Shown: one piece after another, positions 3,348 through 52,766 of the stretch
How positions within the stretch are numbered: position 1 is the first letter of the stretch
How the letters are laid out: every line of letters begins with the position of its first letter
DNA from: Candidatus Omnitrophota bacterium
Lineage (GTDB): Bacteria > Omnitrophota > Gorgyraeia > Zapsychrales > Zapsychraceae
Assembly: GCA_029261055.1 (NCBI GenBank)
Contig: JAJDCA010000053.1
Span: 24,177-88,176 of the forward strand
Length of the DNA: 64,000 nucleotides
Reading direction: 5' to 3'
Translations under genes and position numbers: made by a program
Notes under the pieces: model-generated
The model's input: the letters and a program-made list of their open reading frames with translations, nothing else
Told to the model about the DNA's origin: nothing
Databases searched by the model: none

Positions 3348-5305
3348 ATAATTTTCCTCATGGCTTCAAAAATAATTTGATCATCATCCATCCGCCGCAT
3401 CTGAATTTTATTCTTCGCCACATCATAAATGGCTTGACCAATATGGGTTGCATCGGTGGATAAAATAAAACCTTTTTGATTAAGCTTTGCAATAAATGCC
3501 ATGTGCTTATTTTTCTTTACTGATTGTCCTTGCCGTATTTGCGGTGAAAATACGATTGTTTGATTACCGGAAGACGCCGTTTCTGAAATCATAGAAATAC
3601 TGTCTCCGGAGGTCACCACAAAATTTGAAAGACCTAAAATACCTCCTACAGCCTCGGGGACATCTTCTTTATTGGCAAGTATCAATAAAGGACACCGTGC
3701 ATCATTTTTAAACTCTTTTTGAAACAAACTTTCAATATGGGCCGGGGTTCGCCGAGATGTTGTAATTAAAATGTCGGCATTAATCGTTTTTGCAACTTCT
3801 TTAATCTGCTGAATCAAAACCTGCATTTGACGTTTACTAAGATAAACATCTTTAGCATCCCCGCCGATAAAAAGACCTATTTTGTCCCGAAAGTTATTTT
3901 TTAAATGCGAAAATCTATTCAATAACAATTCAGCCTGTTCTTTCAAATACGCATCATTAATAAGATTCGGCGCTCCATTGGTGACAGTCATCCCTGTTTT
4001 CTTAGGATGGCTCCTCAAATCATGCTCCGGCAAAATAACCAAATCAAATTGTGCAGAACTTAATAAACCCGGCTTTTGAATCGCAACACTTTTAGCCCCA
4101 TAATCTTTGGACAACACACGATTAATGCCCGCCACCGTTGAACCACAAGAAATAAAATAATCGGTTTTTATGGTTGTCAATGCACGGTATGATTCCGGTG
4201 TGAAAAACTTCTGAAGAAACTCTAAACGCCCTTGATAAAAAAATGGTTGTACTAAAGCACTCACAAGAGAAAAAAGACGCGCTGCATTCTTACTTTTAAA
4301 TACAACCTCAACGACTTGGACCTGCAATTTAATATTTCTTTCTGCCAGGGCTTTTTCCAGCATTCTTGCCGCTGCTTGCGATTGTCGTAGATGCCCTGTT
4401 CGGCCGTCATAAAGAATAGTGACGGCAGCCTCTTTAGAATATTTCCAAATTTTGTAAAACCACATGTACTCGTCGGGATACTGCCCAACAAACTGTTCCA
4501 TTAATTCCATAGCCTTGTTTAAATTACAAACAACATCTTGTTCCGCATTATCCGTTTTAACAAATTCTAACGGCTTAGAAATAATAATTCGATGCTGTGC
4601 TCCTTTCTCACGATGAATATTTGCAAAACAAACCGCCGCCCCAAGTCTCGTACCTAATCGTATGGCGCCCGTCGACATGGAAGCGCCTCGCCCAAAAAAA
4701 TCAACTACCGTACCGCGCTTCCCGCCCTGATCAACAACAAGGGAAACAATTTCATTAGAACGCAAACTTTTGATAATTTCTTTGGTTTGAGGACCGGCAA
4801 ATAAATAATGAATACCTTGCCCTTCCCGATAAGAATTTAAAAAATGATACAATTTAGAAAATCGCATTTGTGGATTGATGACAACTTTGTACGGAAAACC
4901 TAATTTAGCTCCTTGTAAGCTCGCCAACTCCCAGTTGCCGGAATGAATCGCCAGAAAAATAACACCTTTATGCTTCTGCATGGCCTCTTTAATAATCTCG
5001 CCCCCTTCAAGAGAAACAATTTTTGGTAAGAGATCCTCGCTCATCAAAGGCAAGCGTAAAAATTCAATAATATTCTGGCCGTAATTTTGGAAGACCCGCT
5101 TTAAAATGGCCAATATTTCTCTATTGGATTTTTTCCCGACAAATGCCATCCGTAAATTGGAATACGCCATTGTCCGACGCTTAAGATCAAACCAATACCA
5201 CAATACGCCCACACGGCGACCAATCCAAAGGGCGACACTGAGCGGAAGACAGCGCATAATTGTTCCAAAAATTTTAACGAGCCAGATGATGATGGATTCT
5301 TTCAA
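3344..5305 (-). CDS. LpxL/HtrB-like lipid A lauroyl/myristoyl acyltransferase fused to a C-terminal ELM1/DUF1022 domain.
   Basis: The N-terminal 290 aa resemble LpxL (hydrophobic N-terminus, ...AIHSGNWELASL... acyltransferase block). The C-terminal 350 aa resemble the ELM1 (PF06258) fold (ILYDGRTGHLRQSQAAARMLEK..., IGGDAKDVYLS..., TTSRRTP..., TSGDSISMISE). Confidence 0.7.
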   Translation of the reverse strand: MKESIIIWLVKIFGTIMRCLPLSVALWIGRRVGVLWYWFDLKRRTMAYSNLRMAFVGKKSNREILAILKRVFQNYGQNIIEFLRLPLMSEDLLPKIVSLEGGEIIKEAMQKHKGVIFLAIHSGNWELASLQGAKLGFPYKVVINPQMRFSKLYHFLNSYREGQGIHYLFAGPQTKEIIKSLRSNEIVSLVVDQGGKRGTVVDFFGRGASMSTGAIRLGTRLGAAVCFANIHREKGAQHRIIISKPLEFVKTDNAEQDVVCNLNKAMELMEQFVGQYPDEYMWFYKIWKYSKEAAVTILYDGRTGHLRQSQAAARMLEKALAERNIKLQVQVVEVVFKSKNAARLFSLVSALVQPFFYQGRLEFLQKFFTPESYRALTTIKTDYFISCGSTVAGINRVLSKDYGAKSVAIQKPGLLSSAQFDLVILPEHDLRSHPKKTGMTVTNGAPNLINDAYLKEQAELLLNRFSHLKNNFRDKIGLFIGGDAKDVYLSKRQMQVLIQQIKEVAKTINADILITTSRRTPAHIESLFQKEFKNDARCPLLILANKEDVPEAVGGILGLSNFVVTSGDSISMISETASSGNQTIVFSPQIRQGQSVKKNKHMAFIAKLNQKGFILSTDATHIGQAIYDVAKNKIQMRRMDDDQIIFEAMRKII

Positions 5306-6461
5306 AAAACTCTTCCTTTCCCTGTGTAATCGAAATTTTAATTCTAAGCGCCGCTATTAAAGTATCCTCCGTAAAATGCTTAATAAACTCTGTAAGTTTC
5401 ACCGCATCCTTTTGTGTCGTGACAATCGTCTGCAAATCATGTTTACGGCAATAGGCTGCCATGTCTTGGGCCTCTTGCGCCCCATACACATGATGATCCA
5501 TAAACACAAAATGCTTTTGAATAGCGGCCCCTAAATTTTGTACGGTTTGTCGAAATGATTTTGGATCGCCGATACTGCTCAATAAACACACTTTTTTTGC
5601 TCGAACACATGACAATTCAGAAATAGCATTAGACTTAATGTTAACAAAATGGGCCGGTTTATGTATCGTCTCTATGACGGGCGCATGCGGATTAATAGAC
5701 TTCAATTTTTCCTTTAATGCCTCTACATTGACGCATTCCATATCTGTCTTTGTCAGGACAAAGACATGCGCTCGCTTAAGGGCTGACAACGGTTCACGTA
5801 AAATTCCCCGCGGAATCAACGCGCCATTGCCAAAAGGATTAACACTGTCGATGGCCACAATATCCATATCTCTCGACAAGCGCCAATGCTGAAATCCATC
5901 ATCCAACAAAAAAACATCAGCCCGATTATTTTTTAGAAAGGCTCTGGCATTAGACACCCGGTCTTTGCCAACAAGAATCGGAACGCCCTCCAAAGAACCT
6001 TCCAACATCTTCGCCTCGTCACTTAAATGGGCATGATGAATCATGCCCCTACAGACTCCCCCCGTAAGGGCATGATTCATCATGCCCCAGACGCCCCTCG
6101 TACGGGCATGATTTATCATGCCCCAGACGCCCCTCGTACGGGCATGATTTATCATGCCCTTAATAGGCTTTGACATGTATCCTCGTATGAGAATAGCCGG
6201 CTTTATTTTTTTTTGCTGCAATACTTCCGCAACATATTCCACTAACGGTGTTTTTCCAACGCCACCCAAAGTAATGTTGCCTATGCTAATAACGCGCGCT
6301 CCAACCTGATGCTTACGTAAAATCCCCCTGGTGTAACAAAACGCCATACCTTTCACAATACCACTGTAAACCCAGGACAGGACCCGCAAGGCACCCTTTA
6401 AAATACACGATGGAAAACCTGCAATCTGATCCGTCGCCATGCGGAAAAAAAAATCTTTCAT
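5274..6461 (-). CDS. lpxK: Tetraacyldisaccharide 4'-kinase LpxK carrying an in-frame repeat insertion.
   Basis: SIGNITLGGVGKTP P-loop, ILIRGY, LLDDGFQHWRL and VLTKTD motifs are present. An extra block of about 48 aa (GMINHARTRGVWGMINHARTRGVWGMMNHALTGGV...) sits in the variable loop after RGY. Confidence 0.85.
   Translation of the reverse strand: MKDFFFRMATDQIAGFPSCILKGALRVLSWVYSGIVKGMAFCYTRGILRKHQVGARVISIGNITLGGVGKTPLVEYVAEVLQQKKIKPAILIRGYMSKPIKGMINHARTRGVWGMINHARTRGVWGMMNHALTGGVCRGMIHHAHLSDEAKMLEGSLEGVPILVGKDRVSNARAFLKNNRADVFLLDDGFQHWRLSRDMDIVAIDSVNPFGNGALIPRGILREPLSALKRAHVFVLTKTDMECVNVEALKEKLKSINPHAPVIETIHKPAHFVNIKSNAISELSCVRAKKVCLLSSIGDPKSFRQTVQNLGAAIQKHFVFMDHHVYGAQEAQDMAAYCRKHDLQTIVTTQKDAVKLTEFIKHFTEDTLIAALRIKISITQGKEEFFERIHHHLAR
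6021..6170. repeat. REP-like palindromic array (copy R1) inside the lpxK coding sequence.
   Basis: Four 20-21 bp palindromes (gggcatgatgaatcatgcccc, gggcatgattcatcatgcccc, gggcatgatttatcatgcccc x2) are separated by 15-19 bp linkers. The last two 36-bp units are identical (linker agacgcccctcgtac). The period is 36 bp, equal to 12 codons. Confidence 0.8.
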
Positions 6462-7681
6462 AAAAACTTTCCTATGATGTCCATACTCTTGTCGGTAGCC
6501 CCTTCATTTTGCTCAATCACCCTCATTCCTATTTGCCCCATGGCCGCCATCCGTTCTGAACTATTTAATAACTTCTTCATTTCCGTTAACAATTCCTCAG
6601 GGTCGTTAACTTGAATAAGGCATTTTGCTTTTAGGAAAATGCTCACCACATTTTTAAAATTTTGTGTATGTGGACCAACTAAGGTAGGCTTACCAAAGGC
6701 CACCGGTTCAATCATATTTTGCCCGCCGCCTGCATTAACGTTTAATGTTTTACCAATAAAGACAACCGTCGCAATTTTGTACAAATGCCGCAGATACCCG
6801 ATGGTATCGACAACTACGACGGTGTTTTCATTGATCGCCGTTACACGCACATCCGACAAACGTACGGGATGAAATCGTTTCCGTTTAATAATTTTCATAA
6901 CCTCATCGGTACGCTCAATATGTCGTGGAGCCATCACAAGGCGCAGGCCGGCAAATTCCGACTTCAATTTTGCATACGCATCACAAATGATCTCTTCTTC
7001 CCCCGGATGTGTACTTCCGGCAACAAAAAGACGACCAGGTATGTGCAACTTTAATTCGGATAAATCTAAACCAGGATCTTCTTTCAAATTGTCAAATTTA
7101 ATATTCCCCACACACTTGACTTTATCCGATGGCGCACCTAAATGCTTAATCCGTTCGACATCCTGCTCACTTTGCATACAAAAGAAGTCCACACAAGCCA
7201 AAACGCGACGCGTCAAAAATCGAAACTTTCTGTACCCTTCAAACGATTTATCCGAAATCCGCCCATTAACCAAAACAATAGGCACATTTGCCTTATGCAA
7301 CAAGGCGTACAAGTTCGGCCATATCTCCGTCTCTGCCGTGACATAAATTTTTGGTTGGATAACGCGAATAAACTTCCGCACAACCCAGCTAAAATCCAAA
7401 GGCGCATAGATCACAATATCTTCTTTGGACAGTTTCTCTTTCGCCAATTTCTGCCCCGTCTTGGTAACGGTTGAGCACACAATTTGATAATCAGGAAACC
7501 GCGCTTTAATTTTTTGAATCAAATCCAAAACCGCCAGCACTTCCCCCACACTCACCGCATGCACCCAAACATTCGGCCGACCTCCAATCTGCGCCGTCAA
7601 AGAACGCGAAATCCCCCCCAACCGCATCCCAAACCCCTTATGCCACTTACCCTTAAAACATAAATATGGAAAGTACAGCAA
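6458..7681 (-). CDS. waaA: 3-deoxy-D-manno-octulosonic acid (Kdo) transferase WaaA/KdtA.
   Basis: VWVHAVSVGE..., ...VTAETEIWPNL..., LVMAPRHIER and GGQNMIEPVAFGKP are characteristic of GT30 Kdo transferases. Confidence 0.85.
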   Translation of the reverse strand: MLYFPYLCFKGKWHKGFGMRLGGISRSLTAQIGGRPNVWVHAVSVGEVLAVLDLIQKIKARFPDYQIVCSTVTKTGQKLAKEKLSKEDIVIYAPLDFSWVVRKFIRVIQPKIYVTAETEIWPNLYALLHKANVPIVLVNGRISDKSFEGYRKFRFLTRRVLACVDFFCMQSEQDVERIKHLGAPSDKVKCVGNIKFDNLKEDPGLDLSELKLHIPGRLFVAGSTHPGEEEIICDAYAKLKSEFAGLRLVMAPRHIERTDEVMKIIKRKRFHPVRLSDVRVTAINENTVVVVDTIGYLRHLYKIATVVFIGKTLNVNAGGGQNMIEPVAFGKPTLVGPHTQNFKNVVSIFLKAKCLIQVNDPEELLTEMKKLLNSSERMAAMGQIGMRVIEQNEGATDKSMDIIGKFL

Positions 7682-7812
7682 AGCGAATCCAACAAATAAA
7701 ATATTGTAAATAATAAAAATAGTATTTTCTCCAAAAATAAAGATAATAAGTTTTAATATTATACTTAAAAGAAAGTATTAATCTAGGATATTGTCTGAGA
7801 ATAACCTTATTT

Positions 7813-8051
7813 GCCGAAATTGCAGTAAATGTTTAGCGTTCTGAGCTGCCTACGAGCTAAAGCACGGAATTATTTCACGCATGAACGCTTGTTCGCCCCT
7901 GCGGGCTCACATTGCTCGACGAAAGCCCTGCGCATTCCATGCTGAACGCATGGAAACCGGCTGCTTGGGCTTTCAACGTCCTGCTTAGAAATAATCCCAT
8001 GCTTTTAACGCTCTTCGACAACTCAGAACACTAAACATTTACAAATTGCAG
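7813..8051. repeat. Intergenic segment of about 240 bp flanked by a 20-25 bp inverted repeat.
   Basis: tgcagtaaatgtttagcgttctgag (about 7813-7836) is the reverse complement of ctcagaacactaaacatttacaaattgcag (about 8022-8051), with one or two mismatches. The interior is GC-richer than the surroundings and has local hairpins such as ttccatgc-tgaac-gcatggaa. Confidence 0.4.
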
Positions 8052-8060
8052 GACAATCTC

Positions 8061-8741
8061 CTAGCCAATTCCGTACTGTGCGTTCATATCGGCTATTTCT
8101 TGTGTAGAGTAATTTGCGGCATCTACCAACGTAGCCTCCAGCACATTTTCATGTGCGAAAAATTGTTGTAGATGGTAACGTTTGGCTTTTGGAATGAGTT
8201 GCGCAATTTTGGGAAGATCTTCTTGGGGGGAGATATGCGGTTTGACAACTGTCGTGCGGAATTCATGGTCCAGGCCGGAGCCCGTAATAAGGTTAATGCT
8301 TTCTTGAATCTGTGACGTGTAGTCTTTACCATCTGTCACCCAATAATACTTTTCTAAAGGCACTTTGATATCCATGGCAATGTAATCGACTAATTTTAAA
8401 CGGATAATTTCTTTAAGAACATCCGGACGACTCCCATTGCTATCCAATTTCAACAAGTATCCCATGGACTTAACTTTCTGTAAAAAATTAATAAGATCTT
8501 TTTGAATGGTCGGTTCACCGCCGGTCACAACAACACCTTCAAGCTGCTGCCGTCGTTTTTCCAAGAATGCTAAGACCTCCCCCTCGGGAATACCTATTCT
8601 AAAATATTTGGGGAGGACTAATTCCGGATTATGACAATACGGACATCGAAAATTACACCCCTGCGTAAAAACCACTGCGGATAATTTTTCAGGATAATTA
8701 ATAAAAGAAAATTTTAACAATCCACCAATTTTCATTTTCAC
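8061..8741 (-). CDS. nrdG: Anaerobic ribonucleoside-triphosphate reductase activating protein (radical SAM). The track start is GTG; an in-frame ATG two codons downstream (about 8735) is likelier.
   Basis: It has the CNFRCPYCHNPELV radical-SAM cysteine motif and a GGEPT glycine-rich SAM motif. It lies downstream of nrdD. Confidence 0.85.
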   Translation of the reverse strand: MKMKIGGLLKFSFINYPEKLSAVVFTQGCNFRCPYCHNPELVLPKYFRIGIPEGEVLAFLEKRRQQLEGVVVTGGEPTIQKDLINFLQKVKSMGYLLKLDSNGSRPDVLKEIIRLKLVDYIAMDIKVPLEKYYWVTDGKDYTSQIQESINLITGSGLDHEFRTTVVKPHISPQEDLPKIAQLIPKAKRYHLQQFFAHENVLEATLVDAANYSTQEIADMNAQYGIG

Positions 8742-8747
8742 ACCCTG

Positions 8748-9080
8748 CTAGAGACACGAAATCGCTTTTGAGCAAAGATTGATACGTTCGGCTCAGAGGA
8801 GACCTCCTTCTGGTCGGCCTCCAATGGTTCGACAAGCTCACCACTATTTAAAGCTTGTTGAATGGTTCGCCTCACGAATCAATCTTTACTTTGCGCAATT
8901 ACGAATTATACCAATCTATTAACCCCTACGACTCTTGATTTATAAACTTTCGACCCGTCTTAACAAAATTTTATGTTAAGGCCTGTAGGCGAATTGGACG
9001 CGACAAAAATACTACGTCCTCTGAGCCGAAAGGCCTTAACATAAAATTCAATAGACGGGTTGCTCGAAAATTCGCATTTA
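8748..9080. repeat. Structured dispersed repeat of about 330 bp, copy M1, between nrdD and nrdG.
   Basis: It is 85-90% identical to the reverse complement of 20031-20363. It contains a stem of about 28 bp (cccgtcttaacaaaattttatgttaaggcc ... ggccttaacataaaattcaatagacggg) and a nested ggacgcg...cgtcc hairpin. It also has the long-range inverted repeat ttcggctcagagga ... cctctgagccgaa. Confidence 0.75.
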
Positions 9081-9089
9081 TTTAGACAA

Positions 9090-11335: not shown

Positions 11336-11656
11336 TCATTTTTGTTTTTTCACAGAATCATCCATCCACTTCAAATAATCCTTATTCCCCGCCACAATAG
11401 GCAAGGCGATAATTTCAGGAACGGCGTAACTGTGGAGGGTCTTGACGGTTTTGATAAGTTTGGAAAGGCAGGATTTTTTGGTTTTACAAATCAAAAGAAC
11501 TTCATTGGCCTGATCGACCTTACCTTGCCACCAAAAGACAGATTTGACACCATCTACAATGTTAGCGCAGGCAATGAGCTTTTCTTCAATCAACTTTTTA
11601 ACAATTTTATTTGCTTCGCGTTTGTTTTTTGTGGTGATGAATGTAACGAGATGCAT
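11336..11656 (-). CDS. cutA: Divalent-cation tolerance protein CutA.
   Basis: The 106-aa ORF reads ...KLIACANIVDGVKSVFWWQGKVDQANEVLLICKT..., the typical CutA1 fold signature. Confidence 0.8.
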   Translation of the reverse strand: MHLVTFITTKNKREANKIVKKLIEEKLIACANIVDGVKSVFWWQGKVDQANEVLLICKTKKSCLSKLIKTVKTLHSYAVPEIIALPIVAGNKDYLKWMDDSVKKQK

Positions 11657-11775
11657 ATCCGCTCCTCTGTAGATAAAGAAGCAAGAAGCATAGGTACAAG
11701 AGGCAAAGATTTTTACATCTTTACATCTTACTTCTCTACTTCTTGCTTCTCTACTTCTTGCTTCTCCTTTAACAT
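11657..11775. repeat. Purine-arm/pyrimidine-arm inverted-repeat element, copy E1.
   Basis: gataaagaagcaagaagcataggtacaagaggcaaagat is followed by the complementary arm ttacttctctacttcttgcttctctacttcttgcttctcc. It belongs to the same family as E2-E6. Confidence 0.7.
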
Positions 11776-13780: not shown

Positions 13781-13905
13781 GCATAATGGGCATAATAAAT
13801 TATGCCCCTACAGACGACCATCGTACGGGCATGATTCATCATGCCCATGCAAACAACCCGCGCCCTCGTACGGGCATGATTTATCATGCCCTTATTATTA
13901 CAATA
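13781..13905. repeat. REP-like palindromic element, copy R2.
   Basis: gggcataataaattatgcccc - tacagacgaccatcgtac - gggcatgattcatcatgccc - atgcaaacaacccgcgccctcgtac - gggcatgatttatcatgccc. Confidence 0.75.
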
Positions 13906-15158: not shown

Positions 15159-16607
15159 TCACTGATCACTTTTTAAGTCCTTACTCATCTCACACATCAT
15201 CTTAAAATTCGTTATTTCCCCTCGAATACTCTTGCGTTTTTTGGCATACTGCAATCTGACATTATAAAACATCAAGGAGGACACTATATTTGCCTGGAGG
15301 CTATTGACTAAAGAACCATCCTTGGATACCCCCTCCAATGTCAAAACCCCTTTGCTATCAATTTTTAAAGAGTCATAGGCAATGCCATTAGGCGTCACCT
15401 CATGCAACTCCACAATATAATCGGGAAGAAAAAACTGACTATTCAATTCTTCATTTAAAATACGCACCTGACGTATTTTGTCCTGAAAATCTTTTACTTT
15501 TGGCTTAATTTGATTCAAACGTCCATTAACCTCTTTAAGCTCCCGCCTATTTTGAAAACCATCAAACCCTAGTACTAAAATACTCAATACCGCAGCAACA
15601 AAAAAAAGGACTCCGGTTTTTATCCATTGACGCTTTTTTTGTTTCTTCTCTCGAGAGTCAACAACCTCCACAGGCAAAAGACTTAAAAAATTTTGAAAAT
15701 CAGAAAAAAGCAAACCTGTGATAACAGATAAACTTACTTTATGTTTCTTCCAAGCCTCCGCTGCGCTGATCGTTTTTTCACATGGAAAACCCTCCAAACA
15801 AGGAATCACATAGATAGGAATATCTGATCGACTTCTTAATTTTTCAATAAGCTGATCTGTCTCCTGAGCATCTCCAATAATCAAAACCTCAGATATCTCT
15901 TCACCCATTTTCTCTTTACGATATGTAGCCAAGGTCAAACTCAATTGCTCTACCAATGTATCCACATTGGCTGCCCCTAAATCGCTAAGCCCAACATTAA
16001 CTTCACGAGAAAATAACAATTCTTTTTGCCGACAAAAACATATTTCCGTACTATGCGTATCAATATTCATAATCACTGACGGAAAAGAACTCCCTTCTTG
16101 CCTTTTATTTTTTTGATAAATATACCAATGGTTAAGACCAAGAGAACTCAATGTTAAACTGTAATGCTGAATACCTGCCCGACGAAAAATACCTACATAA
16201 CGGTCAACTACACTTTTTTGTACAACAACAGCTAATACCTTGGCATACCCTGAAGAATTTTTCTCTAAAAGAATATAATCAAAAACAATTTCTTCTTTAG
16301 CATAAGGCACCTTATGGCTAATTTGCAAACTAAGCATTTGACGTATTTCTTCGTCAAATTGAGTCGGCAATTGAAAATGCAAAAGTGTGGCATCCCGCCG
16401 AGAAATAACAGCCGTAAGACCATCTAAATGAACCTTAGCACTGCTTGCCATTTTTGACACCAACTTAGCTATTTCTGCTTCGGCTAAATTTTGATGCGGC
16501 GCAATACGGCAACATGTTATTATGGGAGTACCACGAGCAGACATCACTTGCATTAATTTGACATGCGTGTCTGTAATTTCGATAGCAGTGGATGTATTCT
16601 TTTTCAT
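15159..16607 (-). CDS. gspL: T2SS GspL-like assembly platform protein with PilM-PilN-type architecture. The start is trimmed to MKKNTSTAIEI....
   Basis: It has a cytoplasmic actin-like (PilM-type) domain of about 330 aa, a TM helix (GVLFFVAAVLSILVLGF) and a periplasmic coiled-coil domain. It sits between gspK and gspM. Confidence 0.6.
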   Translation of the reverse strand: MKKNTSTAIEITDTHVKLMQVMSARGTPIITCCRIAPHQNLAEAEIAKLVSKMASSAKVHLDGLTAVISRRDATLLHFQLPTQFDEEIRQMLSLQISHKVPYAKEEIVFDYILLEKNSSGYAKVLAVVVQKSVVDRYVGIFRRAGIQHYSLTLSSLGLNHWYIYQKNKRQEGSSFPSVIMNIDTHSTEICFCRQKELLFSREVNVGLSDLGAANVDTLVEQLSLTLATYRKEKMGEEISEVLIIGDAQETDQLIEKLRSRSDIPIYVIPCLEGFPCEKTISAAEAWKKHKVSLSVITGLLFSDFQNFLSLLPVEVVDSREKKQKKRQWIKTGVLFFVAAVLSILVLGFDGFQNRRELKEVNGRLNQIKPKVKDFQDKIRQVRILNEELNSQFFLPDYIVELHEVTPNGIAYDSLKIDSKGVLTLEGVSKDGSLVNSLQANIVSSLMFYNVRLQYAKKRKSIRGEITNFKMMCEMSKDLKSDQ

Positions 16608-16765
16608 AAATAATAAAAAGACACAAGAAACAAGATGCAAAAAGCAAGAAACAAACAAATTTCAAATGACTGTGGCTGTTAATTTGTTTAATTCTTGAAT
16701 ATTAAAATTAGAGTATTACTTATATCTTGTATCTTGCTTCTTGTTTCTTGCTTCTTTACTTAATA
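16598..16765. repeat. Purine-arm/pyrimidine-arm element, copy E2.
   Basis: aaaagacacaagaaacaagatgcaaaaagcaagaaacaaacaaat ... about 60 nt ... cttatatcttgtatcttgcttcttgtttcttgcttctttactt. Confidence 0.7.
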
Positions 16766-19981: not shown

Positions 19982-20030
19982 CTTTGTCCCTTTCTTAAAC
20001 TCATTACTCGCTTAAATTACGGTAAACATT

Positions 20031-20363
20031 CAATCAAGCCGTCTACTGGGAGGTTATGTTAAAACCTTTCGGCTCAAAGGACGCAATATTTTTGTCGCGT
20101 CCAATTCGCCTACAGGCTTCAACATAACCTCTTGTTAAGACGACTTGATTGAATGTTTACCTATTAAGAAAATCGTAATCGCGCAGAGTAAAGATTGACA
20201 TATGCGGCGAACCATTCGACAAGCTTAAAATGGTGGTGAGCTTGTCGAACCATTGGAGATCGACCAGAAGGAGATCTCCTCTGAGCCGAATATGTTAATC
20301 TTTACTTAGGAGATTGCAAATAACATATCAGCAATCTCTTAAAAGCGATTTCGCGTCTCTAAC
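20031..20363. repeat. Structured dispersed repeat of about 330 bp, copy M2, inverted relative to M1.
   Basis: The reverse complement aligns with 8748-9080, sharing for example ...ccaatggttcgacaagctcacc...agcttgt(c/t)gaatggttcgcc... and ...cctgtaggcgaattggacgcgacaaaaata.... It has its own stem of about 45 bp, ggtaaacattcaatcaagccgtc ... gacgacttgattgaatgtttacc. Confidence 0.75.
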
Positions 20364-20368
20364 TTAAA

Positions 20369-21598: not shown

Positions 21599-21698
21599 AT
21601 GAATAATTTAAAGGGCATGATGAATCATGCCCCTACAAACGACACTCCCCGTACGGGCATGATTTATCATGCCCCTAATCGATTCATCATGCCCTAAT
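21599..21698. repeat. REP-like palindromic element, copy R3.
   Basis: gggcatgatgaatcatgcccc - tacaaacgacactccccgtac - gggcatgatttatcatgcccc - taatc - gattcatcatgccc. Confidence 0.75.
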
Positions 21699-21701
21699 CG
21701 A

Positions 21702-23396
21702 TTATTCCTCCTGCGTCACACGCAACACTTCACTCGGGGTAGTCATACCTTGTTTAATTTTTTCCCATCCATCCTGACGCAAGGTCTTCATCCCCATTTC
21801 TACAGCGCGAGTACGAATTTGTGCAGCTGTAGCCCTCGACATAATCATTTCTTGAATATCATCACTCAGCGGTAAGAATTCATAAATCCCCTGTCGACCT
21901 TGATACCCTGTATGTTTGCAATTATCACATCCACGGCCTTTATAAACTTCCAATCCTTCAGCCTCTTCCGGAAGCAAATCAAACTCTCTAATGACTTCGG
22001 CAGATATCTTTTCAGCAACTTTACAATCCGGACAAACCAAACGCACAAGCCTCTGTGCCATAAAACACTGAACAGAACTGGCAATTAAATAAGCTTCTAC
22101 CCCCATATCTAAAAGACGTGTAACTCCACTCGCTGCGTCGTTGGTATGCAGGGTTGAAAAAACCAAATGTCCCGTCAAAGCAACCTGAACAGAAATTTCC
22201 GCTGTTTCTAAATCACGCACTTCCCCGACCATAATAATGTCAGGGTCATGACGCAATATAGATCGCAACCCATCTTTAAAACGAAACCCGATACGCGGAT
22301 TAATTTGCGTCTGTGTAATCCCACGCATTTGATATTCAATAGGATCTTCAATAGTGATAATCTTACGGTCAATTTTATTAATCCGGGAAAGACAAGAATA
22401 AAGGGTGGTTGTTTTTCCACTACCTGTAGGTCCCGTAACAAAAATAATTCCATGTGGACTTTTAATCATGTTATCGAGTAATTTAAGATTTGATTTAACA
22501 AGGCCAAGCTCTTCAAGGCTGTAAAGACGTGTCGCATTAAGAATCCTGATAACAACACTTTCCCCAAACGGCGTCGGTAAAAATGATACACGTAAATCCA
22601 AATCAATATCTTTGACCTTTACCTTAAATCGCCCATCTTGCGGCAAGCGTTTTTCAGCAATATTAATATTCGACAAAATTTTAATACGCGAATTAATGGC
22701 TTCTTTGAAATGCAAAATATTTGCAGGCACCTTGGCATCATACAGCGCCCCATCAATCCGATAACGGATCGACAATTCTTTTTCGTACGGCTCAATGTGA
22801 ATATCAGTTGCTCTGTCCTTGTAGGCCTCCAAAAGAATTTGATTCAAAAGTTTCCCCACTGAGGCTTCGGACCCAATATCATCAATATCTTCTACTCCGA
22901 GTTCAGAAGATTCAGAAGATTCAACAGACCCCATAATCTGATCGATCGTCTCAGCACCAACCCCGTAATATTTCCGTAAAGCTTCTAAAATATCTTTTTC
23001 GCTGGCTAAAACTGTCTTAAGTTTGCTTTTAACAACTAAACTAATGCCATCGATAATATGGATATCTAAAGGATTCGTCAGGGCAATGGTCAAGACATCT
23101 TCTTGAAAATCCAAAGGAAGGACCTTGTAATAATAAGCATATTTGGCAGGAATTTGTGCTAAGGCGTCAGGCTTAACTTCAGTTTTCTTTAGATCAATAT
23201 ATTCAATGCCAAGATGCTCGGCAAGAATCGGGTAATACATGGTTTCTTCTTCGACATACCCGAGTTTTAATAAAGATTCTCCAAGGAGATCTCCGCTTTC
23301 TTCTTGTTCCTTGAGTGCCTTGTTAAGCTGCTCTTGAGTGATCACCTTGTGCTTAATAAGCACCTCACCCAGTTTCATTTTATCGCCATCTAACAT
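21702..23396 (-). CDS. gspE: T2SS ATPase GspE (PilB/GspE family).
   Basis: It has an N-terminal GSPII_E_N-type domain, a Walker A GPTGSGKTTTLY motif, Asp/His boxes and a C-terminal tetracysteine CPDC...CDNC. Confidence 0.9.
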   Translation of the reverse strand: MLDGDKMKLGEVLIKHKVITQEQLNKALKEQEESGDLLGESLLKLGYVEEETMYYPILAEHLGIEYIDLKKTEVKPDALAQIPAKYAYYYKVLPLDFQEDVLTIALTNPLDIHIIDGISLVVKSKLKTVLASEKDILEALRKYYGVGAETIDQIMGSVESSESSELGVEDIDDIGSEASVGKLLNQILLEAYKDRATDIHIEPYEKELSIRYRIDGALYDAKVPANILHFKEAINSRIKILSNINIAEKRLPQDGRFKVKVKDIDLDLRVSFLPTPFGESVVIRILNATRLYSLEELGLVKSNLKLLDNMIKSPHGIIFVTGPTGSGKTTTLYSCLSRINKIDRKIITIEDPIEYQMRGITQTQINPRIGFRFKDGLRSILRHDPDIIMVGEVRDLETAEISVQVALTGHLVFSTLHTNDAASGVTRLLDMGVEAYLIASSVQCFMAQRLVRLVCPDCKVAEKISAEVIREFDLLPEEAEGLEVYKGRGCDNCKHTGYQGRQGIYEFLPLSDDIQEMIMSRATAAQIRTRAVEMGMKTLRQDGWEKIKQGMTTPSEVLRVTQEE

Positions 23397-23460
23397 GCGA
23401 TAAGCTTAACATTTTTTGAGGGGAGCTTCAATACGAATTTGGCTTTTGGAGCTATTATTT

Positions 23461-23560
23461 TTTAAAGAAGCAAGAAACAAAGAGGCAAGAGGCAAAGATT
23501 TAGAACATCTCTGCTTCTTGCCTCTTTACCTCTTTACCTCTCTACTTCTTCATACCCAAA
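23461..23560. repeat. Purine-arm/pyrimidine-arm element, copy E3.
   Basis: agaagcaagaaacaaagaggcaagaggcaaagatttagaacatctctgcttcttgcctctttacctctttacctctctacttctt. Confidence 0.7.
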
Positions 23561-28990: not shown

Positions 28991-29444
28991 CATCCTATTA
29001 TTGACGCGTTTGCGCCTTTGTCTTTTTAATAAAATCTTCTGACTAATAGGTAGCTGGCTACCCTGCTTCTATCCTGCAGGGCCCTTGGCTTTGTGCCCCA
29101 TCCTTACGAATGGTTTACCTTTTTCTATTTCCATTGAAAGTATAACATGAAAAGATCGATGCGCAAGGGACCGGGAGGAACTTTATACAATTTTTTTATA
29201 CGGGGGATTAAAAACTATAGCGGAAGAAAACACAACTCATTGCAATCGTGCAAATTACAAAAAAATAAAATAACCTAAATTTTTTTAATATATTAAATTT
29301 TTTTGCATTTTAATTTTGACGCACTATGACAACAATGGACATACTATGACATTTAGGAGCCAAGCAGAAATAACTTCCCTAATTTTTACGACGTTCTTAA
29401 CGCAAGGAGGCAGAATAAAGAAGAAAATTATTTTTGCTTGGTCT

Positions 29445-30094: not shown

Positions 30095-30172
30095 AAACCT
30101 TGCCTACTGGCAGGCAGGTTATGCCCCTACAAGCACACATCCGTACGGGCATGATTCATCATGCCCCTAACA
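30095..30172. repeat. REP-like element, copy R4, with a GC-rich palindromic insertion.
   Basis: gggcctaataaa[ccttgcctactggcaggcagg]ttatgcccc - tacaagcacacatccgtac - gggcatgattcatcatgcccc. Confidence 0.7.
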
Positions 30173-31978: not shown

Positions 31979-32542
31979 CTATACGGTTAGAAAATTGTTC
32001 AATATATTTTTTCCTGCTTTTGTCAATATAGATTCAGGATGGTACTGTACACCCCATAAAGGTAATTGCTTATGACGAATCCCCATAATTTCCCCTTCGT
32101 CAGTCCATGCCGTAGTTTCAAAACATGCCGGCATTGTGCTCTTATCAATAATCAAAGAATGATACCGTGTGGCTTCAAATGGATTTTCAATCCCTCGATA
32201 AAGCTCTTTTTTATTATGTTTAATCAAAGATGTCTTTCCATGCATCAATTTTTTCGCACGAACAATCTTAGCCCCATAAGCATACCCCATACATTGATGC
32301 CCTAAACAAACACCTAAAATAGGAATTTCGCCTGCAAATCGATGAATTAAATCGACGGATATCCCTGCTCCTTCAGGACGACCAGGACCGGGAGAAATAA
32401 CAATTTTTTCCGGATGCATCTTCTCTATATCGGCCAGCGTAAGCACATCATTACGATACACTTTCAAGTTTGCCCCTAGTTCCCCAAAATATTGAACAAG
32501 GTTGTATGTAAACGAATCATAATTGTCGAGCATCAAAATCAT
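31979..32542 (-). CDS. trpG: Anthranilate synthase component II / glutamine amidotransferase (TrpG/PabA type). The start is trimmed to [11 protein letters not shown].
   Basis: It is a class I GATase with ...LGVCLGHQC... and ...QYHPES... motifs. Confidence 0.85.
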
Positions 32543-32640
32543 AATTTTTATGTCAAAGAAGCAAGATACAAGAGGCAAAGATTTTTTTGCTTTTTCTCTG
32601 CTTCTTGATTCTCTAATTCTCTACTTCTTTTCTTTATTCC
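32537..32640. repeat. Purine-arm/pyrimidine-arm element, copy E4.
   Basis: caaagaagcaagatacaagaggcaaagatttttttgctttttctctgcttcttgattctctaattctctacttcttttc. Confidence 0.7.
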
Positions 32641-34742: not shown

Positions 34743-35793
34743 TACCGTCCTCTAATTCTGCTTTCATCAATGCTTCTGCGATATCATCAAAATCACCATC
34801 CATCACCTGATTCAATTTATGTGTCGTAAAACCGATGCGATGGTCGGTGATACGGCGATCAGGATAATTGTAGGTCCTAATTTTTTCACTACGATCACCA
34901 GACCCGACTTTAAGTTTTCGATCTTGAGAGGCTTTGGCGGATTCTTCTTGCTGGATTTTATCCATCACCCGGGCGCGCAAAACACGCATGGCTTTATATT
35001 TATTTTTTAATTGCGAACGTTCATCCTGACAAATCACGACAGTCCCTGAAGGTAAATGCGTAATGCGGACGGCTGAATCTGTTGTATTAACACTTTGCCC
35101 CCCCGGACCAGACGCACGAAAAATATCAATTTTAAGATCATTGGGATCAATTTCTACATCGACTTCTTCCGGTTCAAATAAAATCGCCACCGTTGCGGCA
35201 GATGTATGAATACGCCCAGAAGTTTCTGTGGTGGGAACACGCTGAACACGATGGGCGCCACTTTCCCATTTGAGATGTTTTTCTGCCCCCGTACCGCTAA
35301 CACCAAAAACAACTTCTTTAAAACCCCCTGTCTCCGATTCATGACTACTCATAAAATCTATCTTCCACCCTTTTTGATCCGCATATTTTGAATACATACG
35401 ATATAAATCTGCAGCAAAAAGACTGGCTTCCTGCCCCCCGGTACCAGCACGTATTTCAATAATAAGGTTTCTATCCTTTTCTTGCTTTTTAGGATTGATT
35501 AGCTTTTCAAGCTTTTCGGATACTTCCTGTTTCTTTTTCTTAAGATCTTCCAACTCTTCTTGGGCTAATGCCACGAAATCATCATCAGATTTTTCTTCTA
35601 GAACACCCTTCAAATCCTCTTCTTGCCGAATAAGTTCTTTATGCTCACGCAAAGTGGATACAATAGGTGAAAGGTCAGAATACTCTTTAGCTAATTTCTG
35701 ATATTGACTCTGGTCGGAAATAACCTGTGGATCAGCAAGAAGATTTTCTAATTCTGAATACCGTTGTTCGCTCTTTTGGAGTTTGTCTAACAT
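34735..35793 (-). CDS. prfA: Peptide chain release factor 1. The start is trimmed to [10 protein letters not shown].
   Basis: GGQ motif (...[15 protein letters not shown]...) and PxT-region. The track N-terminal extension is translated from repeat E5. Confidence 0.85.
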
Positions 35794-35796
35794 TAT

Positions 35797-36015
35797 GCCT
35801 ATACATTTTAGAGAAGCAAGAAGCAAAGAAATAAGAAACAGAGATGTGAAACAAGAAAAAAAGATGTAAAGAAGCAAGAAGTAAAGGCTAAAACAAAATA
35901 TAAAAAGACATAAAACAATTTATTTTCTTATCTTTTCATCTTATCCCTTTGTATCTTGCATCTTTGCTCCTCTACTCCTTACTTTTAATCTCTGATTCTT
36001 GCTTCTTTACATCTA
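35797..36015. repeat. Purine-arm/pyrimidine-arm element, long copy E5.
   Basis: agagaagcaagaagcaaagaaataagaaacagagatgtgaaacaagaaaaaaagatgtaaagaagcaagaagtaaagg ... ttttcatcttatccctttgtatcttgcatctttgctcctctactccttacttttaatctctgattcttgcttctttacatc. Confidence 0.7.
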
Positions 36016-36024
36016 TACCTCTTT

Positions 36025-36222
36025 TTATTTTTTATATCGCTTCTTAAACCGTTCAATACGTCCTGCCGTATCGACAAGCTTTTTCTCTCCGGTAAAGAAA
36101 GGATGGCACTGTGAACAAATTTCAACACGAATATTTTTTCCGGTTGAGCGCGTATGCAGCACAGACCCACAGGCGCATGTTATTGTTGTTTCCTCATAAG
36201 TTGGATGAATTTCTGCTTTCAT
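36025..36222 (-). CDS. rpmE: 50S ribosomal protein L31 (Zn-ribbon type). The start is trimmed to [10 protein letters not shown], 8 nt after an AGGAG RBS.
   Basis: [21 protein letters not shown]...[10 protein letters not shown]. Confidence 0.85.
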
Positions 36223-37667: not shown

Positions 37668-38242
37668 ATTCTTTTCACCTGTTTTTTAATTTGAGTAATA
37701 TTCCCACGGTTATCAATAATGATATCCGCTAACCGAATTTTTTCCCGTAGCGGCATCTGAGCTTTAATTCTATGCCGCGCCTGGGCCTTAGTTATATTTA
37801 AACGATCAACGGCGCGTTCAACTTGCTGCGCTTGTGTAGCCTTAACGACAACCGATAAATCGACATAATGATGTAATTTTGATTCAAACAAAAGAGGCAC
37901 ATCAACAACAACGACCTTCTTTTTTCCTCCTTTTTTAAAAGATTGAATTGCCTTTAATATTTCCTTGCGTACTTCAGGATGAATAATACGCACAAGCTGG
38001 TCTAATTTTTTAATATCTTGAAAAACAATTTCCGCTATTTTTTTCCTATCAATATATCCTCGACTCAAGATATCTTGACCAAATAATTTCACGACGGATT
38101 GAAAACACGCCCCTTTCGGGTGCATTAATTCATGTGCAATAGCATCGGCATCAATCACTTTCGCGCCTAATGCCGCAAATATGCCTGCTACCGTTGACTT
38201 TCCCGTTGCTAAACTACCCGTTAATCCAATTATTGTTGACAT
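37628..38242 (-). CDS. coaE: Dephospho-CoA kinase. The start is trimmed to [10 protein letters not shown].
   Basis: [15 protein letters not shown]-loop. The ORF is about 204 aa. Confidence 0.8.
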
Positions 38243-38400
38243 AATTGTATGCAAGAGGCAAAGGTGCAAGAAACATAGAAGCAAAGATTCTAAAAAACAT
38301 AAAGCCTATTGATAAAAACTTAAAACTCATACTTTTCTATTTCTCTATTGCTGTTGCTTTTTCTCTACTTCTTGTCCCTTACTTCTCTGATTCTTTATTA
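38243..38400. repeat. Purine-arm/pyrimidine-arm element, copy E6.
   Basis: gcaagaggcaaaggtgcaagaaacatagaagcaaagattc ... ctattgctgttgctttttctctacttcttgtcccttacttctctgattc. Confidence 0.7.
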
Positions 38401-49228: not shown

Positions 49229-52200
49229 CTATTTCCTTTGGAACAACCCTTGCACATCCGCAACCGGTTTAATACTGTACACAAACGGTACAAGGCCGCT
49301 CTCAATATCCATAATATCCATTTCATTCATCCCTTTCTCAAACATCGCCATATCCACCGATGTACCCTGAATCTGAAGATCAAGCTGCTCCGCATCCAAA
49401 TCAATCCCGCCTTTGTCTTGCACCAACATTGTTTTATTAGAAAAAGTATCCTGACTATACAGCTCTCCCATCCCTCGCACACCGTCTACCCCAACCAAAT
49501 TACCATTGGGAACACCTTTACCTTGAACCAATACATAAAAACCAAGTTCCCTCAACTCATTTAGGGTACTGTAAAGTATTGAACGTGCTAAAGGTAGAGT
49601 ATTCCGAATGATATTTGAGAAAAATTGTGCTTGCGTTTCAATCTTATTTAAATTAAATCCCACAGTATCTCCCGTTTTTTCCAAAAACTTAAAATCAATA
49701 TGAGACGTTATGTCGACTTTTCCTGGATAACCATAAATATACTTAAACGCATCACTCTGTGAATCTCTAAAGTCAAAATCACTATGCATAGCTGCAATAT
49801 GCCCTCCTTGAAGCGGTAAATCTCCGATTGAAAAACCATAATCTACTGTAATAACATAACCTCTTTTCAAACTATCAAAAATACTCTTTTGCCAACGCAA
49901 TAAATCTAAATTGACAACAAGCCCCTTATTTTCCAAAGTTTGATTAACATCATCACTTCCATGGATATTTCGTAAAGCCTTTATGTAGTCAGTAATTCCT
50001 TGATCCGACACATCTCCTAACATTTCAAAAAACTTTCCATTTTGATATCCAACATACACTTCTTTTAATTTTCCAAATTCATCTTTCTTCACACGATGCA
50101 CAGGAAAAGCATCGGGCAATTCATTAGAAATAATCACGCCTTCAATATTTTTTAGAGGCAAATCTACGGCTGAACCTTCAACCAATTTGATGGGATACCC
50201 TGTATCATTTAAATGCTTACGCTGCTTTTTTGTCATTCCAGAACCAATTTCCACTATCACATATCTCAATTTTGCAAAAAAATCAGGATGTATCTCCTTT
50301 ACGTAACCTAAAAGATCTTTGGCCATCGCTCCATTACCCGCTCCCATTTCCACAATTTGAAATGAAGATGGACTCCCCATATTTTGCCACATCTGGAAAA
50401 TCTGTTCTCCAATTGTCGCACCAAAAAAATTCGTTTCTTCTGCATATGTCATAAAATCGACATCCTTTGGAGAAGCACTTGAAGGCCCGATCCTTGCATT
50501 CCCCCCCGAATAATACCCATCCTCCGAATAAAGCGAAATATCCATAAAATCCCGAAACGTAATTTTGCCGTTTGATTCGGCAATACGTTGCTCTAAAAGC
50601 CTTTTCACACTCACTAAGCTAGCATTGTCGTTAAGTTGCACGTTTTCCTTAAAGAAATTAGCAATTTTACTCAAGGTTTCCGGTGATCTTCTGGAGTACC
50701 AGTACCTACCTCTAATTTTTTTATAAAAATTGCCATATTCAACAAAATTCTCTTTTGTTAAATAAAATGGTGCATATCCCATTTTTAAAAATACATAATT
50801 AATAATAAAATTTATGGATCGATGATTACCATTTACAAATGGATGAATTTTATGTAAATCAAAGAATAATTCAGCCACTACATTAAATATTTCATTGTCA
50901 TTTTTTTTCAATCGGGATGCTGTTCTTTTACCAAATAACTTATTAAGAATTTTTTCTGTATGTTCCTCTTTAAAACCCCCATTTAAATAAATTCGAGAAT
51001 TTTTGTCATTAACACGAATAATTCCATTTAACCGCTCAAATAACTCCTTAAATTTTCTTGAATCCATTGGTTCATTTAAAATTTCATTAAAAAACATGGT
51101 TGCATTTTTGTAGTTTTCAATAATTTTAGAATCAAAATCAAAATCGTCATAAGGTAAAGACACTTCTGATTCCTGAACTATTTTTTTCATTTGAAAGAAA
51201 TTCTCTTCAAGGTCCTCAATAGAAATATTTTCGGAAATGATTTCTTCATACCATCGTAATTTTGATTTATCTTCTCTAAACTGCCATTCAGATGAATTTA
51301 AATGTAAAAAAGATGTTACTCGGCTAAAAGCACCTTCAAATAACATTGATGCATCATTTTCATCTAACTGTAAAGATATCATTTCTTTTAAAAGAACCCC
51401 TCCCGAGAAATATTTTCGTGGAATAATTTCTTGCGTAGCCGGATTGTATTCTTCTTTAATCAAATCATACACGCCGGTTTTGAAGGCGTGTAGGTATTTT
51501 TCATACACTTGCTTCTTTGCATCTTGCACCTCTGCCTCTAGACCGCCAACCTTCTTCCGATCAGAGTATGACTTGTTGAGCAGGCTTGTTTTGAGTGTCT
51601 TTTTGTACCAGCTAGCGAGGATGAAGGAATGGTAAACTTGGCGGAGTGGAGCGAAGGTTTGACCTTCGTTGACTTCGTGTTCGATTTCGGGAATTATGAT
51701 GTCACGAATAATTTTGGAAATATTGTCAGAATTATTGTAGGGGAGGGGCTTGCCCCCTCCCGTATTACGGGCGGGCGCAAGGCCCGCCCCTACGTTGTGT
51801 TCCATTGCCAAACCTGCCTGCCGGTAGGCAAGGTAGTCCTCCTCCAACATCACCTTCAACCGCGACTCCACTACAAAAGCACGATCCACATTCTCGTACA
51901 CCAATGCCTTCTCCGGAACAATCCATACCTTGTTAAACGTGTCGATCGGGATATCGATGACACCATACTTGGCCTGTGCTTCGGCGTACACCCGTTCCCA
52001 AAATTCTTCGCCCAGATCTCCTTCCGGATGCATCAAAGAAGCCGTCAATTGTTTAAGCAAGTAATCTTGTTCTAACAAAACTTGCCCCATCGCAGTTCGA
52101 CCGAATTCATCCGGGATAATCCGATCGGCTTCGTACGGAGACAAATTGACCCATAGGTCATCCTCCGGCAGTGTCAATGATGTCAGGAAATATTTAATCA

Positions 52201-52411: not shown

Positions 52412-52521
52412 AATATTTAGTATTAATAGATTTAATAAGACACTACGAAGTATACCATATGGAAAGACGCCTTTACCAACCCGCTAAAATCCAAGTCAAA
52501 GACTCCTCACAAAACATGGGA

Positions 52522-52564
52522 ATCCAGGCTCACAGGCTCCGCGGAGCCTGTGAGCCTGGATTTT
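52522..52564 (+). terminator. Perfect GC-rich hairpin followed by a T-tract, oriented as an intrinsic terminator on the plus strand.
   Basis: atccaggctcacaggctccgc|ggagcctgtgagcctggat followed by ttttt. It lies within the 356-bp region between the Doc/Fic gene start and the CBS gene stop. Confidence 0.5.
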
Positions 52565-52766
52565 TCAACCGTTCAAGGCGAAACCTAATCAAGGGTATGA
52601 AGCCCAGAGCAAGCCCTGGACTCTATCTGTCGCAGTTAGGAGGCAATCCCAGGATTGTCTCTTTGCTGCGGAGTAATGAATCTCCTCGGGGTAAACCTCG
52701 GGGAATTAGACCCTTTTGGAATTTCGTTAAAGCATCGAAATTCCTTAATAAAAAGCTCTTGATTGA

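Follow-up and report, generated by a model that had tools for sequence, protein, structure and literature searches.

Six hairpin-forming elements between genes of an Omnitrophota contig

The window analysed here is a stretch of 64,000 nt of contig JAJDCA010000053.1 (GenBank assembly GCA_029261055.1, positions 24,177 to 88,176 of the forward strand) from a Candidatus Omnitrophota bacterium. Its composition is 39% G+C and practically all of its genes lie on the minus strand, which is referred to as the sense strand throughout. The subject of this work is a family of short palindromic repeats that occupies six gene spacers of the window. The flanking genes have no common function and belong to secretion, tryptophan, cell wall, translation, CoA and glycogen. 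An earlier note on this sequence had reported six copies in spacers between co-directional genes. All six, labelled c1 to c6, were present with slightly adjusted limits, and the gene names given for the six junctions were borne out by Pfam matches. The copies are strictly intergenic, as had been proposed, but the co-directionality is uninformative because practically every gene of the window lies on the minus strand.

The six elements are 80-230 nt in size and contain no open reading frame (ORF) of their own. Their positions, the adjacent stop and start codons, and the minimum free energy (MFE) of the sense folds with the corresponding z-scores are as follows.

c1: 11660-11775, minus strand; between pgeF (upstream, Cu-oxidase_4/PgeF-type) and cutA (CutA1); hairpin core at 11674-11766; pgeF UAA at 11730-11728, inside the sense 5' arm; cutA ATG at 11656, 17-28 nt past the stem depending on the fold; MFE -39.9 kcal/mol, z -5.8.
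c2: 16605-16765, minus strand; between gspK (upstream, T2SSK) and a PilM-PilN fusion gene, 'gspL'; long AT-rich apical region; gspK UAA at 16762-16760, at the stem base; gspL ATG at 16607, ~10 nt past the stem and without a Shine-Dalgarno sequence; MFE -38.7 kcal/mol, z -5.3.
c3: 23455-23560, minus strand; between a 1744-aa CBM60/fn3 gene (upstream) and gspE (T2SSE); nearly continuous stem of 36 bp; upstream UAA at 23566-23564, 19 nt before the stem; gspE ATG at 23396, 66 nt past the stem; MFE -46.5 kcal/mol, z -7.8 (antisense -32.9 kcal/mol).
c4: 32545-32640, minus strand; between murA (upstream) and trpG (GATase); the weakest hairpin, 24 bp; murA UAA at 32636-32634, 3 nt before the stem; trpG ATG at 32542, 12 nt past the stem and without a Shine-Dalgarno sequence; MFE -23.0 kcal/mol, z -3.1.
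c5: 35800-36030, minus strand; between rpmE (upstream, L31) and prfA (RF-1); the longest copy, 86 bp; rpmE UAA at 36027-36025, 2 nt before the stem; prfA ATG at 35793, 18 nt past the stem; MFE -73.1 kcal/mol, z -6.7.
c6: 38243-38400, minus strand; between glgA (upstream) and coaE; glgA stop at 38381-38379, inside the 5' arm; coaE ATG at 38242, 12 nt past the stem; MFE -40.0 kcal/mol, z -3.4 (antisense -20.2 kcal/mol, z +0.15).

The elements fill the whole spacer. The stem begins 2-19 nt past the upstream stop codon, or the stop lies inside the element, and the stem ends approximately 10-18 nt ahead of the next start in five copies and 66 nt ahead of it in c3. Only cutA among the six downstream genes is preceded by a Shine-Dalgarno sequence (GAGGAG), compared with ~15 of 36 genes window-wide. 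There is no room for a promoter ahead of prfA, coaE, trpG or gspL; therefore, transcription has to read through the elements at these junctions.

The arms consist of degenerate tandem units of 7 or 8 nt, CAAGARR and CAAAGARR, facing the complement (YYTCTTG) in the other arm, with a super-period of 15 nt. The autocorrelation peaks were detected at lags of 7 (z 5.0), 8 (z 5.6) and 15 nt (z 6.6). Within the arms of c1 to c5, Tandem Repeats Finder detected arrays of 2-6 copies with periods of 7, 8 and 15; the arrays of c1 were of period 15 (3.6 copies) and period 7 (6.1 copies), and those of c3 of periods 15 and 8. The elements had previously been characterized as a purine-rich arm facing a pyrimidine arm, and inverted arrays of degenerate 7/8-nt tandem units are the better description. 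The recurrence of a conserved core, also proposed before, was evident from motif counts far above the expectation. With up to 2 mismatches, AAGAGGCAAAGAT had 17 matches in the window and CTCTGCTTCTTG had 26, while the corresponding dinucleotide shuffles gave 2.8 ± 1.6 and 3.9 ± 2.0 matches, respectively. The former motif occurs without mismatches in c1, c3 and c4 and with a single one in c6. When the six copies were compared with the window by short-word BLAST, the matches piled up at the six regions only (14-47 at each), apart from one look-alike at 51508-51604 (11 matches). This candidate for a further copy, with an arm-like stretch at 51508-51553, was rejected; it is a single arm inside a Fic/methyltransferase ORF and is treated as purine-rich coding sequence.

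The ends of the elements look like inverted repeats of the form 5'-TAAAGAAGCAAGA...TCTTGCTTCTTTA-3'. With 0-1 mismatch, c1, c3, c4 and c5 carry TAAAGAAGCAAGA at their left end, while c2 and c5 carry it in inverted form at their right end. The copies c1, c3 and c4 are colinear with a mean column identity of 72%; they share an identical 16-nt block close to the apex and the same order of variant units. The copies c2, c5 and c6 exceed them in length, and their apical regions are AT-rich. Judging from the internal TAAAGAAGCAAGA ends at 35867 and 35954-35966, c5 may be a nested or double element.

The RNA of the minus strand had been predicted to form long hairpins, and the arms indeed paired stably in all six copies (z -3.1 to -7.8). 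The sense folds contain 24-86 base pairs and the stems are rich in A-U and G-U pairs. Both strands of the elements can form hairpins. The sense fold was better than the antisense fold in 6/6 copies, the summed MFE values being about -261 and -186 kcal/mol, respectively. The number of G-U pairs was 46 in the sense folds and 16 in the antisense folds. The ratios of G-U pairs to A-C 1x1 mismatches were 46:4 in sense and 16:5 in antisense, which corresponds to an effective bias of ~1.9. The sense strand of the window is unusually strongly skewed, with a GC skew of +0.20 overall and +0.28 at fourfold sites and an excess of T over A of +0.21. The G-U pairs of the sense folds can be explained by this skew because C-to-T and A-to-G changes on the sense strand create them. 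Transcription and skew run in the same direction at every copy of the window and the two explanations are thus inseparable here.

The elements also affect the ends of the adjacent ORFs. The false N-terminal extensions announced in the earlier note appear, with TTG initiation, in longest-ORF calls only; the database gene calls already take the short starts (GspL 482 aa, CoaE 204 aa, PrfA 352 aa, TrpG 184 aa). The C-terminal tail of pgeF, which had been held to be false, turned out to be real, since there is no earlier stop codon and 13 codons (KEKQEVEKQEVEK) are read from c1. The final 6 codons of glgA (NKESEK) derive from c6. For annotation, the elements are thus a source of spurious extensions at the N-terminus and of genuine tails at the C-terminus. 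A possible enrichment of stop codons in the sense 5' arm was not retained: the 5' halves contain 31 stop triplets compared with 21, a modest difference that the T-skew could explain.

The junctions in relatives and the repeats in other genomes

The relatives were retrieved via Rho, which has hundreds of homologues at 75-89% identity; all the taxon-named ones belong to Candidatus Omnitrophota or Omnitrophica. Six Rho relatives (L026, L027, L028, L090, L091 and L092) keep the gene order polA-glgA-coaE-rho-rpmE-prfA-prmC-murA-trpG-trpD-trpC-trpF. The glgA and coaE genes of the relatives overlap by 10-19 nt (L027, L028, L091, L092) or are fused, and L090 is without a glgA call. In L026, which is the nearest relative by Rho, glgA and coaE were called as one 694-aa ORF (6031-8115) with no stop codon between them; this may reflect either a true gene fusion or an error of sequencing. 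The rpmE/prfA spacer was -4 to +5 nt in five relatives and 108 nt in L026. The murA/trpG spacer was 3-43 nt in five relatives; in L092 it has 282 nt and contains unrelated hairpins. For the gspK/gspL junction, no more than two relatives were detectable, L102 and L103, and their spacer was 2-4 nt. The CAAGARR family was absent from these junctions in all eight relatives examined. Tight or overlapping junctions at 4/6 sites, together with the absence of the family in the relatives, speak strongly for insertion and against a conserved regulatory RNA. On this sequence evidence, the comparison marks the window copies as lineage-specific insertions at tight or overlapping gene junctions. In ~3.4 kb and ~1.4 kb of flanking sequence obtained from Logan contigs, no further copy was found.

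To find the family elsewhere, a pattern derived from c1, c3 and c4 (AAGARGCAAGA N35-65 CTCTRCTTCTT) was used. The genomes were scanned one per species, in collections without the window's own genome. The genome scan resulted in 24 matches; 6 of these were genuine multi-unit palindromes and the rest look like chance matches. The genuine copies were located in three Candidatus Omnitrophota metagenome-assembled genomes (MAGs), STB_104, NC_groundwater_1970 and UBA10147. In the JGI metagenomes, ~19 of 59 matches were genuine, on contigs of 42-61% G+C, and several of them were identical to the MAG loci. The 7/8-nt units are conserved over Omnitrophota genomes of 39-55% GC. Carriage by phages was considered and rejected, since 0/9 matches on viral contigs were genuine and all of them fell into one unrelated conserved phage coding sequence. 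The orientation of the search pattern relative to genes at other loci was inconsistent and was not used; the element is near-palindromic, and ad-hoc ORF calls are unreliable at 50-60% GC.

Palindromes of the same design with other heptamers were detected in two of the relatives. L027 carries GGGCTAA and GGGCTCA/GTGCTCA palindromes in the rnhB/UPF0102, prfA/prmC and trpC/trpF spacers, and a small hairpin was found in L026.

L027, 1167-1308, 12715-12869 and 17473-17685: analogous palindromes reaching from stop to start, built of other heptamers.
L026, 9747-9854: small GGTAAGG/GATAAGC hairpin in the rpmE/prfA spacer.

No analogous heptamer palindromes were found in ~20 kb each of L028, L090, L091 and L092. 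The comparison suggests that hairpins of heptad units may form a class in which the unit sequence is lineage-specific.

The evolution of the arrays can be followed at loci recovered more than once. The elements at L068 2454-2528 and L071 6502-6576 represent one locus in two metagenomes with identical flanks; apart from one substitution, a single 7-nt unit (AAGAGGC) is all that distinguishes them. The difference in units is slippage, and it shows that such arrays can grow and shrink by entire units. The orthologous elements of L022 and L055 have diverged by ~11%, compared with ~5% in the flanking coding sequence, and nearly all the changes are transitions. The paired-site changes of this pair were inspected for compensation. 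All 6/6 were one-sided AU/GU/GC switches that fit both strands, and are therefore uninformative. Copy-specific co-evolution of the arms was not found among the window copies either, where duplexes between arms of different copies were about as stable as those within a copy. Since the arms pair irrespective of the copy, the hairpin is a property of the unit vocabulary and survives shifts of register. It likewise survives slippage, since every purine-type array can pair with every pyrimidine-type one.

Origin of the elements and alternative explanations

The data establish a dispersed, non-coding palindromic family with heptad-unit arms. We consider it probable, with a confidence somewhat above even, that the family is a tolerated selfish repeat whose effects on RNA are incidental. 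Among the roles listed in the earlier note, the origin by insertion in the manner of a miniature inverted-repeat transposable element (MITE) is the best supported, by the empty orthologous junctions. There is no sign of a selected role in RNA processing or coupling. The elements are absent at the junctions of the relatives, and the advantage of the sense fold is confounded by the skew.

As a selfish repeat, the family would spread by copying, via a transposition or recombination route, and the copies would persist only at sites where both ORFs are left intact. The UAA/UAG triplets of the sense 5' arm would quickly end any ORF that enters the element. The copies are presumably co-transcribed in the polycistronic mRNA, where they would fold to the hairpins of 24-86 bp described above. 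The stems would most likely act as incidental double-stranded 'punctuation', as a substrate of RNase III or as a barrier for 3'-exonucleases. The base of the hairpin would draw the upstream stop codon near to the downstream start, which mostly lacks a Shine-Dalgarno sequence, and the translation of the downstream gene probably depends on the terminating upstream ribosome that melts the stem base.

Several points weigh against this explanation. No transposase domain was found in the ~30 window ORFs scanned by Pfam, nor in the Pfam matches of the gene calls for further genes of the 64 kb. No target-site duplication could be demonstrated; the TA...TA of the ends itself is part of the inverted repeat, and the relatives are too diverged in nucleotides to reconstruct the target. 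Nearer relatives were sought in the databases via the fast-evolving GspL and none was found, the best match having 40% identity; because no closely related genome is in the databases, no pair of filled and empty alleles was seen for the family. On the RNA side, co-transcription, RNase III cleavage and translational coupling are inferences. The sense G-U excess was rejected as a proof of selection at the RNA level, since a bias of ~1.9 falls within the mutational expectation, and such selection is regarded as unproven. The analogous families are not consistently better folded in sense either (L027 1167-1308, L038).

According to a rather unlikely alternative, the elements are selected cis-regulatory RNAs. 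In that case the hairpins would set the expression of the neighbouring cistrons by RNase III or exonuclease punctuation, by ribosome stalling or by enforced coupling, and the spread would be secondary. The better sense folding of all six copies and the 46 G-U pairs against 4 A-C mismatches are in line with this, as is the tight placement between the stop codon and the ribosome-binding region. Four of the six downstream genes have no Shine-Dalgarno sequence and start ~10-18 nt past the stem. L027 and L026 fill stop-to-start spacers with the same hairpin design made of other units, which could be convergence. In E. coli, hairpins of repetitive extragenic palindromic sequences (REPs) within ~15 nt of a stop codon reportedly lower the translation of the upstream gene (work of Liang, Rudd and Deutscher from 2015), and REPs are said to stabilise upstream mRNA (work of Newbury and co-workers from 1987). 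In contrast, the elements are absent at the same junctions in all eight relatives, the strand asymmetry fits the mutational skew, the arms do not co-evolve copy by copy, and the flanking genes share no function.

A further reading extends regulation to the whole phylum and is distinctly improbable. Here the elements would be modular 'heptad palindromes', register-tolerant and built of lineage-specific 7-nt units, that replace tight junctions as programmable operon punctuation. With the upstream stop brought beside a downstream start without a Shine-Dalgarno sequence by the hairpin base, the downstream gene would be translated by re-initiation across the stem. Changes in unit number would adjust the expression of neighbouring genes relative to each other, and a protein that specifically recognises the units might take part as well.

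It is very unlikely that the arrays arose separately in each spacer by replication slippage of simple 7-nt repeats, in the manner of the long simple sequence repeats and short tandemly repeated repetitive sequences of other bacteria, without any copying from site to site. The periods of 7, 8 and 15, the one-unit indel between near-identical strains (L068/L071) and the lineage-specific unit sequences of the relatives are what slippage would produce. Heptamers are also the commonest long class of simple sequence repeats in bacteria, according to a passage of PMC4679880 that refers to Mrazek et al. 2007. However, six spacers carry one unit family and the common end TAAAGAAGCAAGA, and c1, c3 and c4 share the 16-nt block and the colinear variant units. 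Slippage cannot by itself make the inverted second arm, and the ancestral junctions (overlaps or 2-5 nt) offered no seed.

It is extremely doubtful that the elements are intrinsic terminators or attenuators that split the gene string into transcription units. The hairpins are stable and the sense 3' arms are U-rich, so that an inner stem with the U-rich outer arm (UUUGUUUCUU in c3) is terminator-like. However, the consensus scan called 0/6 elements, yet it called the terminator of a riboswitch at 28991-28959. The stems of 24-86 bp are far beyond the usual terminator length, and c3 and c5 have an A-rich tail behind the stem. Moreover, the essential genes prfA, coaE and trpG begin ~10-18 nt past the stem with no promoter room.

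Equally implausible is a role at the DNA level, as a protein-binding platform or as a cruciform or single-strand hairpin in replication, recombination or nucleoid organisation; the regular units conserved over the Omnitrophota genomes and the hairpins on both strands would suit it, but the 7/8-nt spacing does not hold sites on one helical face, the confinement between stop and start is more simply explained by insertion tolerance, and to our knowledge there is no candidate unit-binding protein. A heptamer-binding protein proposed for the heptamer repeats of Nostoc (bioRxiv 10.1101/2022.06.06.494920) was counted in favour of such a role.

In evolutionary terms, tightly coupled, overlapping junctions in essential operons (rpmE-prfA, murA-trpG, glgA-coaE) can evidently be split by a hairpin of 100-230 nt. 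How such operons maintain or readjust translational coupling once an insertion has occurred thereby becomes testable. Should the hairpins be no more than tolerated junk, the family matters mainly for annotation and as a strain-typing marker.

Other features of the window and known repeat families

The sole Rfam match in the window was a c-di-GMP-I-GGC riboswitch at 29045-29128 on the minus strand (59.3 bits), followed by the terminator-like hairpin at 28991-28959 (minus strand). The riboswitch precedes the 1744-aa CBM60/fn3/rhamnogalacturonan-lyase-like gene and the genes of type II secretion. In L028 and L091, a c-di-GMP-I riboswitch occupies the corresponding position downstream of trpF, and in L027 one lies ~2.6 kb downstream of trpF. 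None of the six elements matched Rfam, and the analogous elements of L027 were without a match as well.

Further structured or regulatory features of the window were the following.

8742-9089 and 19982-20368: one strongly structured ~300-nt element in two copies, inverted and 11 kb apart, with arms 86-89% complementary; MFE -122 and -169 kcal/mol, no Rfam match; one in the spacer of nrdD and the radical-SAM activase gene, the other in the gspF/gspG spacer.
7682-8060: spacer of 379 nt between a radical-SAM gene (8061-8741) and kdtA; the first ~235 nt form one long, very stable hairpin; whole-spacer MFE -148.6 kcal/mol, no Rfam match.
11271-11244, minus strand: perfect sigma-70 consensus promoter (TTGACA, 16 nt, TATAAT; 12/12) located in the cutA/nrdD spacer ahead of the gene for the anaerobic ribonucleotide reductase.
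52412-52766: structured spacer of 355 nt with a perfect 18-bp hairpin (GGATTTTT...CCAGGCTCACAGGCTCCGCGGAGCCTGTGAGCCTGG); a Logan contig of the same organism ends there.

In terms of assembly, independent short-read contigs break at some of the repeat-rich or structured spacers of the window, and not at the six elements.

The window also contains a second, unrelated repeat family. It consists of GC-rich palindromes of ~20 nt, GGGCATGAT(nn)ATCATGCCC, which are led by CGTAC and arranged in tandem arrays of ~36-nt period.

6020-6165, 13785-13897, 21604-21680 and 30105-30172: arrays of the second family; spacers occupied are gspE/gspF, trpC/trpF and the one upstream of RmuC.

In the lpxK gene (5274-6461), the array at 6020-6165 comprises 4 copies of the 36-nt unit GGGCATGA in frame and free of stop codons. 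The encoded (GMINHARTRGVW)-like repeats are located between the RGY motif and the DEA motif, and the Pfam match to LpxK falls into two stretches. By analogy with the Rickettsia palindromic elements (RPEs), the lpxK array would be an in-frame palindromic insertion in an essential gene. The second family looks more like REPs and bacterial interspersed mosaic elements (BIMEs) than the heptad-unit family does.

Proteobacteria, Neisseria, Rickettsia and cyanobacteria are well-known carriers of small palindromic repeats. In the literature searched, no description of such repeats from Omnitrophota/Omnitrophica was found, and a palindromic arrangement of heptamer arrays in this phylum did not turn up either.

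The RPEs are, like the present family, palindromic and can add coding sequence to the host, as seen here with the pgeF tail and the C-terminus of glgA. In contrast, the RPEs insert in frame within ORFs and encode an internal peptide, whereas the heptad-unit family touches only the ends of ORFs.

The short tandemly repeated repetitive (STRR) sequences or contiguous heptamer repeats of cyanobacteria and the TAACTGA repeats of Beggiatoaceae (PMC4679880; bioRxiv 10.1101/2022.06.06.494920) likewise have 7-nt units and are intergenic, often just upstream of start codons. Their units are also lineage-specific with a variable copy number, and a role in translation is suspected. The Cuspidothrix contig L024 carries (CAAGAGG)x5. 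The degenerate head-to-tail 7-nt units of the present family correspond to these repeats, but the latter form direct arrays with practically no inverted partner; 169 direct sets and one indirect repeat were reported in one of these papers. In our family, each array faces a complementary one in inverted orientation, so that a long hairpin is its hallmark.

The resemblance to REPINs and REP-BIMEs of Pseudomonas and Enterobacteria (PMC3116915, PMC3337134) concerns both structure and position. These, too, are short, non-coding, extragenic and transcribed, and many copies of them are dispersed. They are located after stop codons and between operon genes, and their long hairpin is made of two inverted halves. 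Their effects are known at the mRNA level, on stability and on the translation of the upstream gene (PMC3116915, PMC3337134). However, the halves of a REPIN are REPs, short imperfect palindromes recognised by a single-copy RAYT transposase, whereas the halves here are tandem 7/8-nt arrays without internal self-complementarity and hence not an inverted pair of REPs. No RAYT gene was found within the window, and its second repeat family (GGGCATGATnnATCATGCCC) is far more REP-like.

With MITEs such as the Correia elements of Neisseria and the enterobacterial ERIC sequences, the family has in common the size range, the multiple dispersed non-coding copies, the transcribed intergenic insertion and the TA-flanked ends. 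It also has terminal inverted repeats, which are a weak indication here since the whole element is palindromic. Correia and ERIC elements likewise can alter or supply the ends of ORFs, and by analogy the hairpins are plausible RNase III substrates. In contrast, the copies of a MITE are colinear derivatives of an insertion sequence with a target-site duplication and consist of inverted repeats around a unique core, whereas the number and order of units vary here and the palindrome extends over the whole element. Although it falls outside the REPIN definition and is unconfirmed as a MITE, as neither a parent insertion sequence nor a target-site duplication could be demonstrated for it, the family behaves most like the REPIN/BIME elements and the MITEs of the Correia and ERIC type. 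It joins two kinds of repeats that are usually separate, the heptamer simple-sequence arrays and the hairpin-forming dispersed elements.

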